A program made the position numbers and the translations under genes. DNA of 24,000 nucleotides from an uncultured Candidatus Saccharibacteria bacterium (GTDB lineage: Bacteria; Patescibacteriota; Saccharimonadia; Saccharimonadales; 2-12-FULL-41-12). The notes under the pieces were generated by a model, which was not told where the DNA came from, made no database searches, and saw only the letters and a program-made list of their open reading frames with translations. The DNA is taken from positions 170,969 through 194,968 of the forward strand of contig CAMTWJ010000002.1 of NCBI GenBank assembly GCA_947085495.1, given 5' to 3'. This document shows, one piece after another, positions 3,601 to 11,225 of this stretch. Numbering within the stretch: position 1 is the stretch's first letter; each line of letters begins with the position of its first letter.

Positions 3601-3843
3601 ATGGCCTTTAACCACTATGCAAAGATAAAACGCATTCTAGATGAGCAGCCAGGGGGCTGGGTGATCAAACGGATCGACGAGCCAACCAGCGCCAAAAACT
3701 TTAAGGGCGAAACAATAGAGTTCCCCCACTACTACCGTATCTACGATGCAAATGGTGCGCCTATAAAATACTGTAAGTTCCAGCAGATCGAACGCCTAGC
3801 TCAGGCTTTGAAGTTGCCTGTTGAAGCACTGCCTGTAGTCTGA
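3601..3843 (+). CDS. Hypothetical protein (80 aa)
   Basis: Intact ORF packed 4 nt after the previous stop, with no competing ORF. No family recognised. Confidence 0.4.
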   Translation: MAFNHYAKIKRILDEQPGGWVIKRIDEPTSAKNFKGETIEFPHYYRIYDANGAPIKYCKFQQIERLAQALKLPVEALPVV

Positions 3844-4394: not shown

Positions 4395-4553
4395 CTAGAT
4401 CTGAGCAATAATCCATACTGCGCCGGCTACAGCGAGTATGAAAAGACCGAGCCCAACGGGTGAACCCCAGCTGAACCATGATCCCCACGAACGCCAGTGT
4501 TTATGGGTCCGCTCGTACCAGTCCGTTTCATCTTGTTTTGTCAGTTTTGACAT
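4395..4553 (-). CDS. Small membrane protein (52 aa, hypothetical)
   Basis: Below the ORF-track size cutoff. The reverse strand reads taaataAGGAGtcatctATG, a good SD with 7-nt spacing. Translation is MSKLTKQDETDWYERTHKHWRSWGSWFSWGSPVGLGLFILAVAGAVWIIAQI*, with one C-terminal TM helix. Confidence 0.5.
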   Translation of the reverse strand: MSKLTKQDETDWYERTHKHWRSWGSWFSWGSPVGLGLFILAVAGAVWIIAQI

Positions 4554-4672
4554 AGATGACTCCTTATTTAGCTAATAGTGAGCCTCTTCGGTATGTCTGC
4601 CAGTAAATAGTTGTTCTCGGTGAGGCCAAGAGCTATTCGTGCGTCTGGACTTATTAACGGAGTAATTATAGC

Positions 4673-4880: not shown

Positions 4881-4955
4881 TGGCTCCGGGGAGAGGGTTC
4901 GAACCTCCGACCTGGTGATTAACAGTCACTCGCTCTACCACTGAGCTACCCCGGA
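4881..4955 (-). tRNA. tRNA-Asn (anticodon GUU), CCA encoded
   Basis: The reverse strand reads TCCGGGGTAGCTCAGTGGTAGAGCGAGTGACTGTTAATCACCAGGTCGGAGGTTCGAACCCTCTCCCCGGAGCCA. It folds as a cloverleaf: 7-bp acceptor, GCTC/GAGC D stem, anticodon loop CTGTTAA, T arm GGAGG-TTCGAAC-CCTCT, and discriminator G73. Confidence 0.95.
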
Positions 4956-5562: not shown

Positions 5563-5616
5563 AAGGGTTAATTATGTAGTATATTGCCAAAAATTACAAT
5601 ATGTTACGAAATATGT

Positions 5617-6744
5617 TTATTGAGAATGTGAACTCTTTGCAACTTCTTCTCTGGCTACGTTCCAGAGGCTTGGGTCGTTGGCTTTGACTTTACGCCAATA
5701 CCACCACTCGACACCCCAGGTGTCCATGGTGCGAAGGCCAGTCTCTCGTCCGTATTCAAAGCGTTCTTTTAGGCGTTCGGCATTCATAGATTTATTTTGC
5801 TCAGGAATGTCAGAAATTTTATTAATCTCATATCCTTCTGGCATCCAAGGCTCCATCTGAAGCTCGTGAATGATCAGCGGCTTGCCCTGTGCCAACTCAC
5901 CTGCTCCGGCCAATGTGGAGTAGAACCAAGGCGGATACGGGTATTCAAAATAGCGATGCGTTACCGAATAGTCGTAGACTCTTTTGTACACAGCAACGCC
6001 ATACACATCGGGGGTTGGTTTGCCGACTGGCCACCCGCCCCAGTTATTGCTACGAGTAACAACGATTGGTTTACTTGGGTCGAGTTTGCGCACTAGCTCA
6101 GTTTCCTCAACCAAACGTTCTCGGTCAAAGTCTGTGCACTTGCCAAACACTTTCATAAAGAATTCGTTTTCTACCTGATAGCTCACAAGAGCTGGGCTGT
6201 CTTTGTACCGCTCAACCACAGCAGTCATGAACTTCTTAAGCTGAGGGTACCACACATCTTTAGGCTCTTTTTGAGCCCAAGCTGGTTCGTGGCACTCTGG
6301 CCAGCGAGGTTGGCGAAGACCTACGGCCAAGTTCACTGTTGCTCCCGCTTCCTCGGCCATCTTAAATTGCCAGTCTAGGTCGCTAAAATCATACGTGCCT
6401 GGCGTTGCTTCTATTTCTTTCCAGTAGCTCACTAGGCGCAAACGCTTAATCTGTAAGTCGTACAAGGTAGCGTGCAGCGTGTCTTTGGGATCTAGGCCAA
6501 AGTAGCGAGCATACCTAGGAATAAAAGTGGTGCCAACCTGATGAGGTTCGCTGGCGTGTTTTTGCTGATACCAATAGGCAAGGCCGTAGCTGCCACTAAA
6601 GACACAAGTAACTAACAAAATAACGAAGATCACTATTCGTTCGTACCAGTCTCGCTTTTTCCAAAGCACGCCGGTTATCTTGGATATTGGGCCAGATTTT
6701 GCCTTTGGCCGCTTTCTTAGAGCTGTTTTTTTCTTCTTTGGCAT
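5617..6744 (-). CDS. Membrane-anchored glycoside hydrolase, clan GH-A (GH35/GH42 beta-galactosidase-like)
   Basis: I prefer the start at MPKKKK (ATG, rc of 6742-6744), giving 375 aa. The track's longer ORF would overlap the divergent GT2 gene. Features are a basic N-terminus plus one TM helix, then PGTYDFSDLDWQFKMAEEAGATVNLAVGLRQPRWPECHEPAWA and the catalytic-acid motif YQVENEFF (compare QVENEYG in GH35). Confidence 0.6.
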   Translation of the reverse strand: MPKKKKTALRKRPKAKSGPISKITGVLWKKRDWYERIVIFVILLVTCVFSGSYGLAYWYQQKHASEPHQVGTTFIPRYARYFGLDPKDTLHATLYDLQIKRLRLVSYWKEIEATPGTYDFSDLDWQFKMAEEAGATVNLAVGLRQPRWPECHEPAWAQKEPKDVWYPQLKKFMTAVVERYKDSPALVSYQVENEFFMKVFGKCTDFDRERLVEETELVRKLDPSKPIVVTRSNNWGGWPVGKPTPDVYGVAVYKRVYDYSVTHRYFEYPYPPWFYSTLAGAGELAQGKPLIIHELQMEPWMPEGYEINKISDIPEQNKSMNAERLKERFEYGRETGLRTMDTWGVEWWYWRKVKANDPSLWNVAREEVAKSSHSQ

Positions 6745-6771: not shown

Positions 6772-7614
6772 ATGGGAAAACTGCTTACGCTTTCGATTAT
6801 CATACCAGCTTACAACGAAGAAAACCATCTTAGAGCATGCCTCGACGCCATAGCCGTACAAACAGAAAAACCCCTAGAAGTTATTGTGGTAGACAACAAT
6901 TCTACCGACAAAACAGTAGAAATTGCCAAAAGCTATAAGTTTGTAACCTTGATCCACGAAAAAAACCAAGGGTTAATCCCCTCTCGCAACAGAGGTTTTG
7001 ATGCTGCGAAGGGTGATCTGCTAGCTCGGCTCGATGCCGACTCGGTAATTGCACCCAACTGGGTCGAAGAGGCCTTAAGCCAAATGTCTCAGCCAGATGT
7101 AGTGGCCATAACCGGCCCTGGCAAAACCTATGTGTTGAGCAATCTTATCCCTTGGCACTCTGCCTTTTGGTCTCGGCTGTATTTTTGGCACATGTACTCC
7201 GTACTAGGCTTTCAGGTGCTTTGGGGCCCAAACATGGTCATCGCTAAGGATATGTGGCAAAAAGTTAAGGGGCAGGCCTCTACGGACGACACAGAGGTGC
7301 ATGAGGACCAAGATCTTTCTATTCTCATCCGAGCAGCTGGCCATTCGGTTAAATACGATAAAAATCTGGTTATTACCACAGATGGCGAGCGCTTGGCTTA
7401 TTTGCCCAAGGCAATTGAGTACGAAGGCCGCAAACACAAAACTATTCGGCGCCACAAAGAGCTCGGCACACTAGAACTAGCCAAAGCAGGCTCACTAAAC
7501 TCTGCTGTTGGCTGGCTGTTATTCATGGTCCTACTGCCGTTTGGTTTTTTGTATTTTGTGGTGGCCGCTATCTATAGCCTAGAGAAGCTCATCGGCCTCA
7601 AGCCGATCGAATAG
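6772..7614 (+). CDS. Glycosyltransferase family 2 with C-terminal TM helix
   Basis: 280-aa ORF. The motifs LSIIIPAYNEENHLRACLDAIAVQT and VIVVDNNSTDKT, and the RLDADS (DxD-like) motif, match the GT2 signature. The C-terminus is hydrophobic. Confidence 0.85.
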   Translation: MGKLLTLSIIIPAYNEENHLRACLDAIAVQTEKPLEVIVVDNNSTDKTVEIAKSYKFVTLIHEKNQGLIPSRNRGFDAAKGDLLARLDADSVIAPNWVEEALSQMSQPDVVAITGPGKTYVLSNLIPWHSAFWSRLYFWHMYSVLGFQVLWGPNMVIAKDMWQKVKGQASTDDTEVHEDQDLSILIRAAGHSVKYDKNLVITTDGERLAYLPKAIEYEGRKHKTIRRHKELGTLELAKAGSLNSAVGWLLFMVLLPFGFLYFVVAAIYSLEKLIGLKPIE

Positions 7615-7619
7615 CTTAA

Positions 7620-8213
7620 CTACTGAGCATCGTTGCTGGTGTAGCCACCAAATTCATTTTCTGCAGGGGTGCAGCTGTTCCACAGTCCCCTATTTTGCTC
7701 ACGAGCTTCGACTTGAAGTGCCCGAAATTCATCGAGCTTTTGGAATGGAAAGCTGACATAGGCAAAGCCATAGCCATTTTTGATAATCTCGGCATTCACC
7801 AGTCTGCCATCTGGCAGATATACATAGCGCAGCAAGCGGTTGTATCTGTCTCGGTTTTGGTTGGTTGGGTCAGCATCTAGGCGGAGCTCTTGGTTGCCTA
7901 TCAAGTCTTTTGTGTACTGTGCCGCTGCTTGGCCAAAACACTGGATGGCTTTACGAGGATCATGTGTTTCGGGTGTATCAACACCGATAAACCGTACTTT
8001 TTCAGTGGTACCGTTCATGTTTACGGACACGGTATCGCCATCGCTAAACTCAACCACTCGATATAGACCCGGGTTTTGAGTCTGTGCCAGCTTTGGAGGC
8101 TCTTCTTGTTTTACAACCGCAAAGCTAATCGCTGTTAGTAGCAGCGCAAATATAAGTCCAGATAATGTCTTCGGTCGTCGTTTTAGATAGCGGAAGCTAC
8201 TTTTGGTACCCAT
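7620..8213 (-). CDS. Thermonuclease (staphylococcal nuclease/SNase family) with N-terminal membrane anchor or signal
   Basis: 197-aa ORF with the N-terminal TM LSGLIFALLLTAISFAVV. The SNase core reads GDTVSV...EKVRFIGVDTPETHDP...RDRYNRLLRYVYLPDGRLVNAEIIKNGYGFAY. TATAAT (rc of 8222-8227) lies 8 nt upstream of the ATG, inside the upstream gene. Confidence 0.85.
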   Translation of the reverse strand: MGTKSSFRYLKRRPKTLSGLIFALLLTAISFAVVKQEEPPKLAQTQNPGLYRVVEFSDGDTVSVNMNGTTEKVRFIGVDTPETHDPRKAIQCFGQAAAQYTKDLIGNQELRLDADPTNQNRDRYNRLLRYVYLPDGRLVNAEIIKNGYGFAYVSFPFQKLDEFRALQVEAREQNRGLWNSCTPAENEFGGYTSNDAQ

Positions 8214-9049
8214 ACCGAAGTATTATACTCGGCTGGTTTTGGCAGTTCGGCCACAAGCTCGGTAAGCTCTTCCTGCGAAGGCAGGTTTTTCTTGAGTTCT
8301 TCAAGGGGCTCTGTAGGGCTAACATGCTGTTCGGTATACTCTGTCCCGGCACTGTTGTACAAGTCAGTGTGCGTAGCAGCCGGTAGTTGTTCTGCTGCTG
8401 GGAGTGCGTACAGCGCCGAGCGAATTGGAGCTATAGAAGTAACATCTTCTAGCGAGTGGATGAATGTCTTGGGAGCTATCTTTTTCCCATAGCCGTATGG
8501 AGTTTTGTCGATGTTAAACAATGTCCCTGCTGGGTATGAAATGCCATTTAGAGACAAAGGCGCAAATGATAAAGCAGTGGGTTCACGGTAGCCCTTCTTA
8601 AAAAATACAAGCTGGCCTTCGTCGTCTACAAACATGCGGTTTTTATTGCTACCGTATTCGTCGTCTGACAGATCACTGCGCTCAATCGCTGCCTTAAAGT
8701 AATATTCAGCCGAAAGACAATTATCTGCTCCCTCTTTTGCCTCGTTATGGTGAAGCTCTATCTTCTCTTCGGCATCTCGAAAAGACGAATCATTAACAAT
8801 GTTTAGCAGATAGCCGCCCATAGTACTTAGTCCATCCATTTGAGGAATGTATTCGTTGGATAGCTCTCGGTCCGGCTTTTCTCGCAGAACAGTACACGCC
8901 CGAGTGTAGGCATTAAAGGTATTAGAGCCGGTCAAGGTTGTGATTGACGGGTGTTTGGAATTGCCTTTGAGCGCATCAAGAATAAAGGGTTCTACAACCC
9001 CCTCCATAGCCTCAACAAGCTGTTCGTGATCTTGAATAAATTCTGACAT
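8183..9049 (-). CDS. Hypothetical protein, paralog 2 of a tandem pair (288 aa)
   Basis: Shares blocks with the 281-aa neighbour: GSNTFNAYTRAC vs GSNAFNAYAQAC, and FVDDEGQLVFFKKGYREPTALSFAPLSLNGISYPAGTLFNI vs YVDDEGETVLFQKSFGEESAMSFKPISVAGIDYAPGTIFSV. No signal peptide and no family recognised. Its 3' end overlaps the nuclease start by 31 nt. Confidence 0.6.
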   Translation of the reverse strand: MSEFIQDHEQLVEAMEGVVEPFILDALKGNSKHPSITTLTGSNTFNAYTRACTVLREKPDRELSNEYIPQMDGLSTMGGYLLNIVNDSSFRDAEEKIELHHNEAKEGADNCLSAEYYFKAAIERSDLSDDEYGSNKNRMFVDDEGQLVFFKKGYREPTALSFAPLSLNGISYPAGTLFNIDKTPYGYGKKIAPKTFIHSLEDVTSIAPIRSALYALPAAEQLPAATHTDLYNSAGTEYTEQHVSPTEPLEELKKNLPSQEELTELVAELPKPAEYNTSVWVPKVASAI

Positions 9050-9055
9050 AAAGTA

Positions 9056-9088
9056 TATATTATACTAAAAAACACTAAAAAAGTCAAT
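9056..9088 (-). promoter_or_regulatory. Consensus sigma70 promoter cassette, copy 1 (TTGACT-17-TATAAT)
   Basis: The reverse strand reads ATTGACTTTTTTAGTGTTTTTTAGTATAATATA, with -35 at rc 9082-9087 and -10 at rc 9059-9064. The ATG at 9049 lies 9 nt after the -10. The cassette is 32/33 identical to 10541-10573. It is preceded on the reverse strand by hairpin AGCGT-AACC-ACGCT (9090-9103) spanning the upstream stop codon. Confidence 0.65.
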
Positions 9089-9096
9089 GAGCGTGG

Positions 9097-9942
9097 TTAC
9101 GCTGCTTTGGTTTGGGCTTCTGCCTCACGTTGCCAGGCTCTGCCCATAACACCAGCCAACCTTGGGCGCTCTTGAAGCACTTGTTTTAGCACACCAGCAG
9201 AAGGCATAAATGCAGATACGTCACGTACATCTAGATGTCTGAGGGCAGAATCAACATGGTAGTAGTCGAAGCCTTTTATAGTTTGCCTTCTGTCTTTATC
9301 TCTCTCACTCAAAGCAAGATAGCTCAGCCTCATCGGGCGAAGTGCAGCAATATGGCCCAGTGGATATACTTCGCTTTCGAAGAATTGGCCACTGACTGGT
9401 TCTCCAAAAGCGTCCTCGGTTTGCCATACGCTAAAAATAGTCCCTGGTGCATAATCTATGCCAGCGACAGAGATTGGCTTAAAGGACATTGCGCTTTCTT
9501 CTCCAAATGATTTTTGAAACAGCACTGTTTCGCCCTCGTCATCAACGTATAGATTATTGATATAGTCATGGCCAGCATTTCGTATGGAGCGAATATAATT
9601 TACCTCTGCGGACTTACAGGTTCCTATTAGTTTGTCAGTCCAATGAAACGGATACTTAGTGTTTTTTGGCCCTTCCACAGAGCTGTTTATAAGATCGATA
9701 ACCATCTTGCCGGCTTGCCCTATTTTCTTTGGCTGTTCAATCTTTCTTTCGGTCAATGGCTCCGCTTCGGCAGTCTGCTTGCAAGCCTGAGCATAGGCGT
9801 TAAATGCATTACTTCCTTCGATGTAGATCATCCCAGAGCTAGGCACTCTATATCCTGCTAAGGCCTCGACAATTGGCGCAGCAACTCCAGCCTCGTCAAA
9901 GGCTTCCAGCAAATGCGCAGTATCTCGTTCAATTTTATTCAT
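9097..9942 (-). CDS. Hypothetical protein, paralog 1 of a tandem pair (281 aa)
   Basis: Intact ORF with conserved blocks shared with 8183-9049 (see that entry). No family recognised. It begins 15 nt downstream of the hammerhead motif. Confidence 0.6.
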   Translation of the reverse strand: MNKIERDTAHLLEAFDEAGVAAPIVEALAGYRVPSSGMIYIEGSNAFNAYAQACKQTAEAEPLTERKIEQPKKIGQAGKMVIDLINSSVEGPKNTKYPFHWTDKLIGTCKSAEVNYIRSIRNAGHDYINNLYVDDEGETVLFQKSFGEESAMSFKPISVAGIDYAPGTIFSVWQTEDAFGEPVSGQFFESEVYPLGHIAALRPMRLSYLALSERDKDRRQTIKGFDYYHVDSALRHLDVRDVSAFMPSAGVLKQVLQERPRLAGVMGRAWQREAEAQTKAA

Positions 9943-9957
9943 AAATTTTCTAAAACT

Positions 9958-10010
9958 CTTGCTTTCGTCCTTTTGGACTCATCAGTATGACCGCACAGTC
10001 ATAAAGCAAA
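9958..10010 (-). ncRNA. Hammerhead ribozyme, type III topology
   Basis: The reverse strand reads UUUGCU-U|UAUGAC-UGUGCG-GUCAUA-CUGAUGA-GUCC-AAAA-GGAC-GAAA-GCAAG.
- Core: both conserved core strands (CUGAUGA and GAAA) are present.
- Stem I: 6 bp with a 6-nt loop.
- Stem II: 4 bp with a G10.1-C11.1 closing pair and a 4-nt loop.
- Stem III: A15.1-U16.1 plus GCAAG/UUUGC, open-ended.
- Cleavage: site triplet CUU obeys the NUH rule. Predicted cleavage falls between 10004 and 10003. Confidence 0.8.
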
Positions 10011-10105
10011 TAACAAAGTGAAAACAGACCAAAAAGGATGGTGTGGGTAAAGGACGGATGTCCACCAATGCGTTTTCTTTGCATTGTCCCTCTTTTGCAT
10101 CTCCT

Positions 10106-10534
10106 TCAGAGACCTTTCTTTTCTCGGTACACAATCACAGGTATGACCAAGATTGTGAGAGTGAAGACGCTGGCCAGGAAAAGGCCCTCTATTTCGTCAC
10201 TCTTGATCATGATCAGCTTGTTCTCCAAGTCCTTCTTGTTGAAGAAGGAGTAGCTGATGACCAGGTCATGTAGCAGCACCAAAAGTGCTACCGCAAGCCA
10301 GGCTGCAGCGATGTACTCGAAAAAGCCGAGATCTTGGAACAGTCCATTGTTCCCGGTGAGCTGGCTGTATAGCCAAGAACTACCTACCAGCTGAGTTATA
10401 AAGCTCAGTCCGGCTGCGAGGAGTAGAACGATAGTACGTTCAGCTGTATCTTTATCAAAGAAGTTCACTGTTGTATCCTTCGGTCGAGGTTTCCACTTTG
10501 TTAAGGTGTTAAGGAGAAAATGTTTTCTCAACAA
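10106..10534 (-). CDS. Hypothetical multi-pass membrane protein (142 aa, TTG start)
   Basis: ORF with about three hydrophobic helices (IVLLLAAGLSFITQLV, YIAAAWLAVALLVLL, LFLASVFTLTILVIPVIV). The only in-frame start near the promoter is TTG at 10534, 9 nt after the -10. The start assignment is uncertain. Confidence 0.5.
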   Translation of the reverse strand: MLRKHFLLNTLTKWKPRPKDTTVNFFDKDTAERTIVLLLAAGLSFITQLVGSSWLYSQLTGNNGLFQDLGFFEYIAAAWLAVALLVLLHDLVISYSFFNKKDLENKLIMIKSDEIEGLFLASVFTLTILVIPVIVYREKKGL

Positions 10535-10540
10535 AACTAA

Positions 10541-10573
10541 TATATTATACTAAAAAACACCAAAAAAGTCAAT
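10541..10573 (-). promoter_or_regulatory. Consensus sigma70 promoter cassette, copy 2 (TTGACT-17-TATAAT)
   Basis: The reverse strand reads ATTGACTTTTTTGGTGTTTTTTAGTATAATATA, with a single mismatch to copy 1. It is preceded on the reverse strand by an interrupted hairpin (10578-10607). Confidence 0.65.
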
Positions 10574-10811: not shown

Positions 10812-10910
10812 ATACATATTATATCAAAGCACCCCCTTACCCCAGTTAATTCTAGGCTACAAAATAATTAAGCGCACTAAGTGAAACCCGAGTAGGTGTA
10901 CAATGAAAGC

Positions 10911-11225
10911 ATGTCGAATATGTTCAAAAACCTACGTAAATCTATACGAAGTTGGGCTCAGCTTAAAGACCCTGCCCCCGGACTTAGTATGGGTATCCCC
11001 ACAACAGAAGTAGAGAGGCATTCTGAAAATAGAAATATAGAGTTAGCTAAGCTCAGGCTACAAAAAGAGCATTACGAAAAGAATTTAAGAATAATGATCG
11101 TCACTACAGCAGTTGGTATTTTGGGTATCATCGTATCCCTAATGCTGGGGGTGGTTGCCATAACTTCACGACAAGAGATAAAAGTAGAAGTTCATGATCA
11201 GAAAACAGTTCAAAAGAGTGATTAA
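10911..11225 (+). CDS. Hypothetical protein with C-terminal TM helix (104 aa)
   Basis: The track starts at GTG 10896. I prefer the ATG at 10911, which lies 6 nt after TACAAT (10899-10904). The TM segment is IMIVTTAVGILGIIVSLMLGVVAI. Confidence 0.5.
   Translation: MSNMFKNLRKSIRSWAQLKDPAPGLSMGIPTTEVERHSENRNIELAKLRLQKEHYEKNLRIMIVTTAVGILGIIVSLMLGVVAITSRQEIKVEVHDQKTVQKSD

Follow-up and report, generated by a model that had tools for sequence, protein, structure and literature searches.

The 24,000-nucleotide (nt) stretch of Candidatus Saccharibacteria DNA analysed here (GenBank contig CAMTWJ010000002.1, positions 170,969 to 194,968 of the forward strand; "the window") contains a complete type III hammerhead ribozyme motif of 53 nt, located on the minus strand between two co-directional genes. 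It is very probable that this element is a genuine hammerhead maintained by selection, and likely that it is functional and cleaves RNA in the cell. Read from 10010 to 9958, the minus strand gives UUUGCU-U-UAUGAC-UGUGCG-GUCAUA-CUGAUGA-GUCC-AAAA-GGAC-GAA-AGCAAG. Its parts are listed below, with the evidence for each in brackets.

A complete type III hammerhead between two genes

9958–10010, minus strand: type III hammerhead ribozyme motif, complete, 53 nt (sequence, Rfam family RF00008, covariance model R1, identity in the orthologous locus L330)
10005–10010, minus strand: 5′ strand of stem III, UUUGCU, whose partner is AGCAAG at 9958–9963 (pair probabilities)
10003/10004, minus strand: predicted cleavage site, 3′ of U17 (10004) and 5′ of U1.1 (10003) (core alignment)
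9986–10003, minus strand: stem-loop I, UAUGAC/GUCAUA, 6 base pairs (bp), possibly 7 with a U-G pair, with loop 1 UGUGCG (folding)
9979–9985, minus strand: core strand C3–A9, CUGAUGA (sequence)
9967–9978, minus strand: stem-loop II, GUCC/GGAC with G10.1-C11.1 and loop 2 AAAA (folding)
9964–9966, minus strand: core strand G12-A13-A14, GAA (sequence)
9958–9963, minus strand: 3′ strand of stem III, AGCAAG, with A15.1 and G15.2 (sequence)

A direct reading of the strand agreed with the initial annotation of this DNA, which had reported both core strands as intact and A15.1 as paired with U16.1; these two lie at 9963 and 10005. H17 is U at 10004, i.e. not G, and the cleavage triplet C16.2-U16.1-U17 (CUU) is compatible with the NUH rule, as had been claimed. 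Stems I and II are capped by loops, the 6-bp stem III is open and G10.1-C11.1 closes stem II, which is the type III topology. The three helices, with the proposed 6-bp stem I and 4-bp stem II, were kept in the minimum free energy (MFE) fold of an isolated 58-nt piece and appeared again in both the MFE and the centroid folds of the whole 186-nt intercistronic RNA. Pair probabilities were 0.66–0.91 except for the terminal pair of stem I (0.46) and the G-U pair that ends stem III (0.28); the other five pairs of stem III stood at 0.66–0.79, and those of stem II at ∼0.9. The downstream ATG (9942) begins 15 nt 3′ of the hammerhead, the distance already given, and the upstream stop codon (10106–10108) lies 95 nt 5′ of it rather than the 96 nt first stated. 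A 44-amino-acid (aa) open reading frame (ORF) at 9950–10084 that overlaps the motif was dismissed as a by-product of the ATG within the CUGAUGA-containing sequence.

Covariance models and random controls

The match to RF00008 (Hammerhead_3) spans exactly 9958–10010 at 30.7 bits, with E = 4.6e-5 on 201 nt and E = 0.0055 over the whole 24-kb window. At Rfam gathering thresholds a tRNA is the sole match in the window, and no other ribozyme family was found there at E up to 1. Model R1 was built from 69 phage type III hammerheads with the window sequence excluded. It gave the site 58.1 bits (E = 3.9e-15), a score to be read knowing that 19 of its 51 positions are fixed by a search pattern itself drawn from the window; that pattern does not determine stem I, loop 1 or stem III. 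The second-best R1 match in the window reached only 9.2 bits. Thus the covariance-model check proposed in the initial annotation gave a significant E-value with Rfam, a score short of the Rfam gathering value of 48.5 bits, and a strongly positive result with R1. When 12 phage hammerheads of the same build were scored with Rfam, one reached 52.6 bits and 11 fell at 37–47.5 bits; because these 11 lie below 48.5, the gathering threshold under-calls this subclass.

A custom hammerhead descriptor also matched the window at this site alone, and Rfam, the descriptor and R1 each report one hammerhead in the 24 kb. Applied to 40 Mb of first-order Markov random sequence with the dinucleotide statistics of the window, the descriptor gave 6 relaxed matches and no canonical one (A15.1-U16.1 together with G10.1-C11.1). 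A chance resemblance in AT-rich intergenic DNA, for which the score below the gathering threshold might speak, is effectively refuted by this absence of canonical matches, by the 58.1 bits with R1 and by the identical motif in an ortholog.

An identical hammerhead at an orthologous locus

The single homolog of the upstream protein (66% identical) led us to a Joint Genome Institute (JGI) contig, L330. This is a close relative, with protein identities of 97% for CobA and 92% for SNase; at third codon positions, the identity between it and the window is 0.68–0.71 for CobA, SNase and GT2. Its layout is promoter, membrane-protein gene, second membrane-protein paralog, spacer, hammerhead, 17 nt, ATG of a family gene, another paralog and SNase. 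The two loci compare as follows.

Hammerhead (3617–3669 in L330): 53/53 identical, R1 58.1 bits
Spacer 5′ of the hammerhead: 87% identical
Promoter and leader: 91% identical, including a 48-nt identical leader stretch
Membrane-protein ORF: 75% identical
Sequence 3′ of the hammerhead: 56% identical

The substitutions in the spacer all fall outside its hairpin stems. By our own arithmetic, which assumes independent sites, the chance of 53 unchanged positions at 70% neutral identity is ∼6e-9. Because 53 of 53 positions are identical where third codon positions are ∼70% identical, we infer strong purifying selection on the motif. The genes around it have changed a great deal: the L330 hammerhead is followed by a gene orthologous to the window's second paralog (74% identical) and not to its first (29%), and one membrane-protein gene precedes the hammerhead in the window versus two in L330. 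Family genes in the CobA–SNase interval are 29–74% identical between the two loci, compared with 92–97% for the flanking CobA and SNase. The initial annotation had named non-compensatory stem mutations in orthologs as evidence against a ribozyme; L330 has none, but being identical it also shows no covariation.

The public gene call at 3645–4550 of L330 takes as its start the ATG of CUGAUGA, within the ribozyme core. The true start of that gene is likely the ATG at 3687 (MSEFIQDH..., as in its paralogs). Unannotated hammerheads can mislead start-codon calls, since this call begins inside a ribozyme core.

Covariation in phage and metagenomic relatives

A scan of viral contigs with a pattern of core plus stem II yielded at least 120 loci, from which 69 distinct phage type III hammerheads were aligned (A5). 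Their build is a stem III of 3–7 bp, a stem I of 6 bp plus a U-G/A pair, the loop GWGU, and GUCC-NAAA-GGAC; most lie ∼15–30 nt 5′ of an ATG, and several contigs carry more than one. In A5, whose members were chosen with a descriptor that requires pairing, 97.2% of the cells were paired, and both sides had changed at 12 of 16 pairs. The same pattern with G at 15.2 matched one viral contig and at least 120 metagenome loci (L209–L328), a contrast that is only suggestive because the collections differ greatly in size. Nearly all of the metagenomic G15.2 matches fold as window-like type III hammerheads. We aligned 87 of these sequences with the window at fixed offsets from the core and stem II pattern (A7), excluding 17 of 105 sequences that were out of register. 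In A7, 97.5% of the cells were paired, and both sides had changed at 10 of 17 pairs, including all 7 pairs of stem I and 3 of stem III; counted over A5 and A7, such changes affect 3–4 pairs of stem III. Slid-register controls for the two sets were 29–46% paired. The core strand CUGAUGA is invariant in A7 and, except at N7, in A5. Stems I and III covary strongly at the level of the subclass, and a search for covariation, as the initial annotation had advised, was strongly positive in the phage and metagenome sets alike.

C16.2 occurred in 87 of the 87 aligned metagenomic relatives, though it was absent from the search pattern, and H17 was C in 61, U in 17 and A in 9. With C16.2 in 87/87, U17 in 17/87 and G15.2 in at least 120 loci, the G15.2-C16.2 pair and the CUU triplet are natural, recurrent features. 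Both had been entered as caveats in the initial annotation; they are indeed present, but they recur in natural relatives. Loop 1, UGUGCG, fits the subclass consensus U-GUGY-R, whose successive U, G, U and G are conserved in 86, 85, 73 and 71 of the 87 relatives, and loop 2, AAAA, fits NAAA. Two metagenomic loci, L214 and L223, have a stem III almost as in the window (UUGCU|U ... AGCAA). A large natural subclass with G15.2-C16.2, often with U17 and common in metagenomes, is therefore passed over by the Rfam cut-off.

Distribution among Saccharibacteria

Using the CobA-like neighbour as query, we retrieved 80 loci, nearly all from metagenome-assembled genomes of Candidatus Saccharibacteria / Saccharimonadales; the best CobA match among species representatives (L129/L001) was 92% identical. 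The order ATP synthase, CobA, variable region, SNase and GT2 is kept across the 80 loci, and the interval between CobA and SNase is highly variable among them. In the window (8183–9942) and in L001, L004, L006, L129–L208 and L330, this hypervariable interval often holds one or two members of a family of 270–300-aa proteins.

Several observations weigh against a functional, selectively maintained ribozyme at this site. The element fails the Rfam gathering score (30.7 versus 48.5 bits). Among the 80 CobA loci only L132 and L183 have a hammerhead in this neighbourhood, at other positions; the closest representative (L129/L001) and 77 of the 79 other Saccharibacteria loci have none there, and none was found at the orthologous positions of the relatives L001–L008. 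Since most relatives are without one, the hammerhead is not a general requirement of the locus. The CUU site may be slow, because GUC was generally more active than other triplets when ribozymes were assayed for cleavage in trans (PMC2238771). The single orthologous locus found is identical and hence offers no covariation at the locus itself. Finally, the two genes are presumed to be co-transcribed only on the strength of promoter scans and of the lack of a terminator-like site on the minus strand.

Part of this would suit a decayed or very slow hammerhead with no useful cleavage rate, for example a remnant from a phage or mobile cassette: the CUU triplet falls short of the optimum (PMC2238771), the Rfam score lies below that of every phage comparator tested (30.7 versus 37–52.6 bits), and hammerheads are missing at the locus in most relatives. 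We consider such decay quite improbable. There are 0 substitutions in 53 nt against ∼70% third-codon-position identity nearby, every core position matches the consensus, and U17 accompanies C16.2 in 17 of 87 independent relatives whose stems are intact. No phage protein families lie nearby; the neighbouring proteins of the window gave no PHROGs match, and the neighbourhood is chromosomal, with ATP synthase, CobA-like, HAD and SmpB genes.

Alternatively, the hammerhead and its spacer could mark a gene-cassette junction in a hypervariable locus, conserved through recombination or cassette exchange at the DNA level and not through RNA catalysis. The great variation of the CobA–SNase region among the 80 loci fits this idea, as do the different genes on both sides of the identical hammerhead in the window and L330 and the promoter that is duplicated within the window. 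A DNA junction, however, would have no need of an intact catalytic core or of compensatory changes in the stems of more than 150 relatives, and no recombinase or integrase gene is present among the window ORFs around the site; we regard a cassette junction as very improbable.

The two other Saccharibacteria loci with hammerheads differ in arrangement. L132 has a type III hammerhead at 8214–8268 on the plus strand, 21 nt 5′ of the SNase start codon. In L183 two type III hammerheads, at 4544–4595 and 5614–5664 on the minus strand, lie on either side of an unknown 275-aa ORF that shortly precedes the ATP synthase operon; one has the window-like GCU|C ... GAAAGCG and the other has loop 1 UGUGCG. 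One of the L183 hammerheads carries an extra G before GAAA.

Comparison with known hammerheads

The window element belongs to a known class; as a single chromosomal Saccharibacteria copy, of the G15.2 subclass and with a sub-cut-off Rfam score, it is distinct within it. It shares with RF00008 (clan CL00010) the core, the three-helix junction, the open stem III, the loop-capped stems I and II and the NUH site, and has a stem I of 6 bp and a stem II of 4 bp with G10.1-C11.1. It differs in having G15.2-C16.2 rather than C-G, U as H17 and a loop 2 of only 4 nt, and in residing in a bacterial chromosome instead of a viroid, satellite or eukaryotic repeat. The hammerhead of the satellite RNA of tobacco ringspot virus (sTRSV), which processes rolling-circle replication intermediates of that circular RNA, has a 6-bp stem I, a loop 1 beginning UGUGC and a GUCC/GGAC stem II with a 4-nt loop, resembling the UGUGCG and GUCC-AAAA-GGAC of the window. 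In type III hammerheads of the sTRSV type, loops 1 and 2 make a tertiary contact, to which fast cleavage at physiological Mg2+ is due.

As in the window, intergenic hammerheads of phages and prophages have co-directional genes on both sides and stand a few to tens of nt ahead of a start codon. Perreault et al. (2011) described hundreds of bacterial hammerheads, many near prophage genes, as well as hammerhead arrays flanking single genes (PMC3088659). Intergenic bacterial and prophage hammerheads cleave ∼2-kb polycistronic RNAs in vitro, and for a halovirus hammerhead 13 nt before a start codon the mapped 5′ end is ≤3 nt from the cleavage site (PMC3088659). A 2019 review gives the processing of polycistronic transcripts as a suggested role and the biological role as still undefined (PMC6765202). 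A prophage or integrase setting with several hammerheads, as in the PMC3088659 examples, was not found in the window.

Our 69 phage examples resemble the window in their 6-bp stem I, the loop U-GWGU-R, GUCC-NAAA-GGAC and a structured 5′ flank, but they have C15.2 in 67 of 69 cases and mostly C17. They often occur as arrays of 2–4 per contig, often after the hairpin GUCUUCAAAGAC, whereas the window has a single, non-phage copy. The metagenomic G15.2 subclass, together with the Saccharibacteria loci L183, L132 and L330, has the same stem II, loop 2, GAAAG, C16.2 and loop 1 consensus as the window; the conserved 15-bp upstream module of a subset (described below) is not significant in the window. 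Our literature search, of limited coverage, found neither a description of the G15.2 subclass as such, which is no proof of novelty, nor any publication that connects hammerheads to Saccharibacteria or to the candidate phyla radiation.

Several viral contigs carry variants of these arrangements. In L016, L113, L114, L120 and others there are arrays of 2–4 type III hammerheads, each ∼15–30 nt before an ATG, and many hammerheads of phage arrays are preceded by a conserved hairpin-like GTCTTCAAAGACAC. Type II-like hammerheads (CTGTCTCTGATGAGTCCGTAGGGACGAAAC...GTCAGACAG) stand in L026 (∼560–630) and L127 (∼7430–7490) directly after a sequence that resembles a tRNA 3′ end, GGTTCGAGTCC...

Probable transcription unit and proposed mechanism

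The features that surround the hammerhead, all on the minus strand, are the following.

10469–10573, minus strand: sigma-70-like promoter TTGACT-17-TATAAT (10572–10544) and conserved 5′ leader of the upstream gene (11/12 promoter match)
10106–10468, minus strand: upstream gene, a 120-aa protein with three hydrophobic segments, family unknown (annotated product P0152; 66%-identical homolog P0153)
10011–10105, minus strand: conserved structured spacer with the hairpins CAAUGC...GCAUUG and GGAC...GUCC and a pyrimidine-rich tract (L330 comparison, folding)
9097–9942, minus strand: downstream gene, a 281-aa protein of an uncharacterised family (ORF, family search)
9046–9088, minus strand: second promoter copy, 88% identical, before the 288-aa paralog (direct repeat D1, promoter scan)
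8183–9049, minus strand: second paralog, 288 aa, 27% identical to the 281-aa protein

Promoter scans gave the 281-aa gene neither a promoter match nor a TATAAT box 7 to 9 nt before its ATG, and no terminator-like site was found on the minus strand between the upstream stop codon and the hammerhead. With a promoter match before the upstream gene, none before the 281-aa gene and no such site in between, the hammerhead most likely lies inside a two-gene transcript. The initial annotation had spoken of an operon in which the hammerhead precedes two paralogs. The genes are co-directional, as it said; the unit is better described as promoter, membrane-protein gene, hammerhead and first paralog, since the second paralog has its own promoter copy.

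In the mechanism that we propose as the most likely, transcription would start at the sigma-70-like promoter (10572–10544), and the transcript would span the 120-aa membrane-protein gene, the structured 95-nt 3′ spacer, the hammerhead and the 281-aa gene. On closure of stem III, the RNA would cut itself 3′ of U17, between 10004 and 10003. The upstream mRNA would be left with a structured 3′ region ending in a 2′,3′-cyclic phosphate. The downstream mRNA would have a 5′-OH end 62 nt ahead of its AUG and would open with the compact scaffold of stems I and II. The two genes would thereby be carried on separate mRNAs whose stability and translation are uncoupled. Cleavage in vivo at the predicted site is likely; the specific consequence for mRNA fate is less certain.

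This locus could serve as a clean test case, being a single chromosomal, non-phage copy that is perfectly conserved while the protein genes on either side diverge fast or are swapped, and it brings with it a conserved promoter, leader and 3′ spacer. Its practical value is modest: a correction to annotation, and a defined construct for work on intercistronic ribozymes and mRNA fate.

The upstream flank and the 3′ end of the first mRNA

Rather than separating two messages, the hammerhead may mainly serve the upstream gene, making and protecting its mRNA 3′ end together with the spacer, with the separation of the downstream gene a by-product. The cleaved 5′ product would then fold onto the spacer or, through a 15-bp helix (10503–10489 / 10025–10011), onto its own leader, blocking religation and 3′ exonucleases. 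We hold this to be somewhat unlikely, yet several features of the flank are in its favour. In the window, the 60 nt on the 5′ side of stem III are more stable than shuffled sequences (MFE z = −2.36). In the phage and metagenome sets, too, these 60 nt are more structured than shuffles (mean z ∼ −2.6), which does not hold for the 3′ flank. Of 110 metagenomic hammerheads of the G15.2 type, 94 follow an ORF on the same strand, and 78 of these 94 lie ≤200 nt from its stop codon, with a mode of 50–100 nt into which the 95 nt of the window fall; the distance to the next ORF is broad. In relatives, hammerheads of this kind track the upstream gene's 3′ end no less than the downstream gene's 5′ end. A single gene family beside the metagenomic hammerheads was considered and rejected, the adjoining ORFs being diverse.

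Fifteen aligned loci form a metagenomic subset in which an upstream AGCGAAUAUGGCAAG makes a 15-bp helix with CUUGUCAUAUUCGCU, a segment that contains the 5′ strand of stem III. Pairing in this helix is 87%, compared with 31–53% in slid controls, and compensatory changes are present. Because the helix takes in that strand, it is an alternative partner for it. The corresponding alignment (A6: L212, L216, L251, L257, L261, L263, L267, L286, L301, L312, L328 and others) contains a conserved 5′ element of ∼100 nt. A possible counterpart in the window is formed by two arms of inverted repeat I3.

10489–10503, minus strand: 5′ arm, UAACAAAGUGGAAAC, of a possible 15-bp long-range helix (inverted repeat I3; identical in L330)
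10011–10025, minus strand: 3′ arm, GUUUUCACUUUGUUA, of the possible long-range helix, abutting stem III (inverted repeat I3)

All 15 pairs of this helix, which was noticed post hoc, can form in RNA, one of them as G-U, and both the leader and the spacer are conserved in L330. Against a device centred on the upstream gene, a model (R2) of the metagenomic upstream module had no significant match in the window (8.9 bits, E ∼0.9), and the same 3.9 kb holds further inverted repeats of comparable length. The sole substitution in the L330 helix breaks a terminal pair without compensation, leaving 14 bp, and a gene start follows the hammerhead by 15–17 nt in both the window and L330.

More tentatively, and in our view unlikely, the hammerhead could be one half of a two-part RNA device whose other half is a structured 5′ element that captures the new 3′ end after cleavage. 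In the metagenomic subset this element would include the 15-bp helix that competes for the 5′ strand of stem III, and in the window it would be the 15-bp pairing of the conserved leader with the nucleotides abutting stem III. If so, the cut would be irreversible, and the upstream mRNA end would be base-paired and capped by the cyclic phosphate. Such a device would amount to a ribozyme-based alternative to the intrinsic terminator in small-genome Saccharibacteria and their relatives.

Neighbouring genes and further observations

In the source annotation the upstream gene has a GTG start at 10468 and encodes 120 aa; it is not the 142-aa TTG ORF. The 120-aa protein matches nothing in Pfam or PHROGs. 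The two genes that follow the hammerhead are paralogs of one another, as the initial annotation held (27% identity, E = 7e-26), and belong to a family of ∼270–300 aa with 248 representatives at E up to 0.001; this family, too, gave no Pfam or PHROGs match. A word-indexed homolog search with the 281-aa protein returned only itself, and a profile of 50 family members only 3 proteins. The AlphaFold model of the 281-aa protein, made with 50 family members, is confident; it has a predicted local distance difference test score (pLDDT) of 86 and a predicted template modelling (TM) score (pTM) of 0.86, and consists of helical N- and C-terminal parts around a beta-rich middle. Foldseek found no significant match to this model in the Protein Data Bank (PDB) (best E = 0.11, TM <0.2).

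Between the CobA-like gene and the promoter lies a 109-aa ORF with a GTG start (10896–11225, plus strand), for which we found no homolog in the 80 related loci and no family match; it may not be a real gene. The tRNA gene detected by Rfam (4884–4955, minus strand, 67.7 bits) has the anticodon loop CUGUUAA, which suggests tRNA-Asn (GUU).

The 43-nt direct repeat that accounts for the two promoter copies (9046–9088 / 10531–10573, 88% identical) includes the start-codon position, which is ATG at the 288-aa paralog and TTG at the membrane-protein ORF. A TATAAT-like box stands 7–9 nt before the ATG, with no Shine-Dalgarno sequence, at the genes starting at 487, 3880, 5562 (minus strand), 8213 (minus strand), 9049 (minus strand) and 11813 (minus strand). 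This arrangement suggests that these window genes produce leaderless mRNAs. Inside the ATP synthase operon, the genes are preceded instead by ribosome-binding sites of the AAGGA(G) type.

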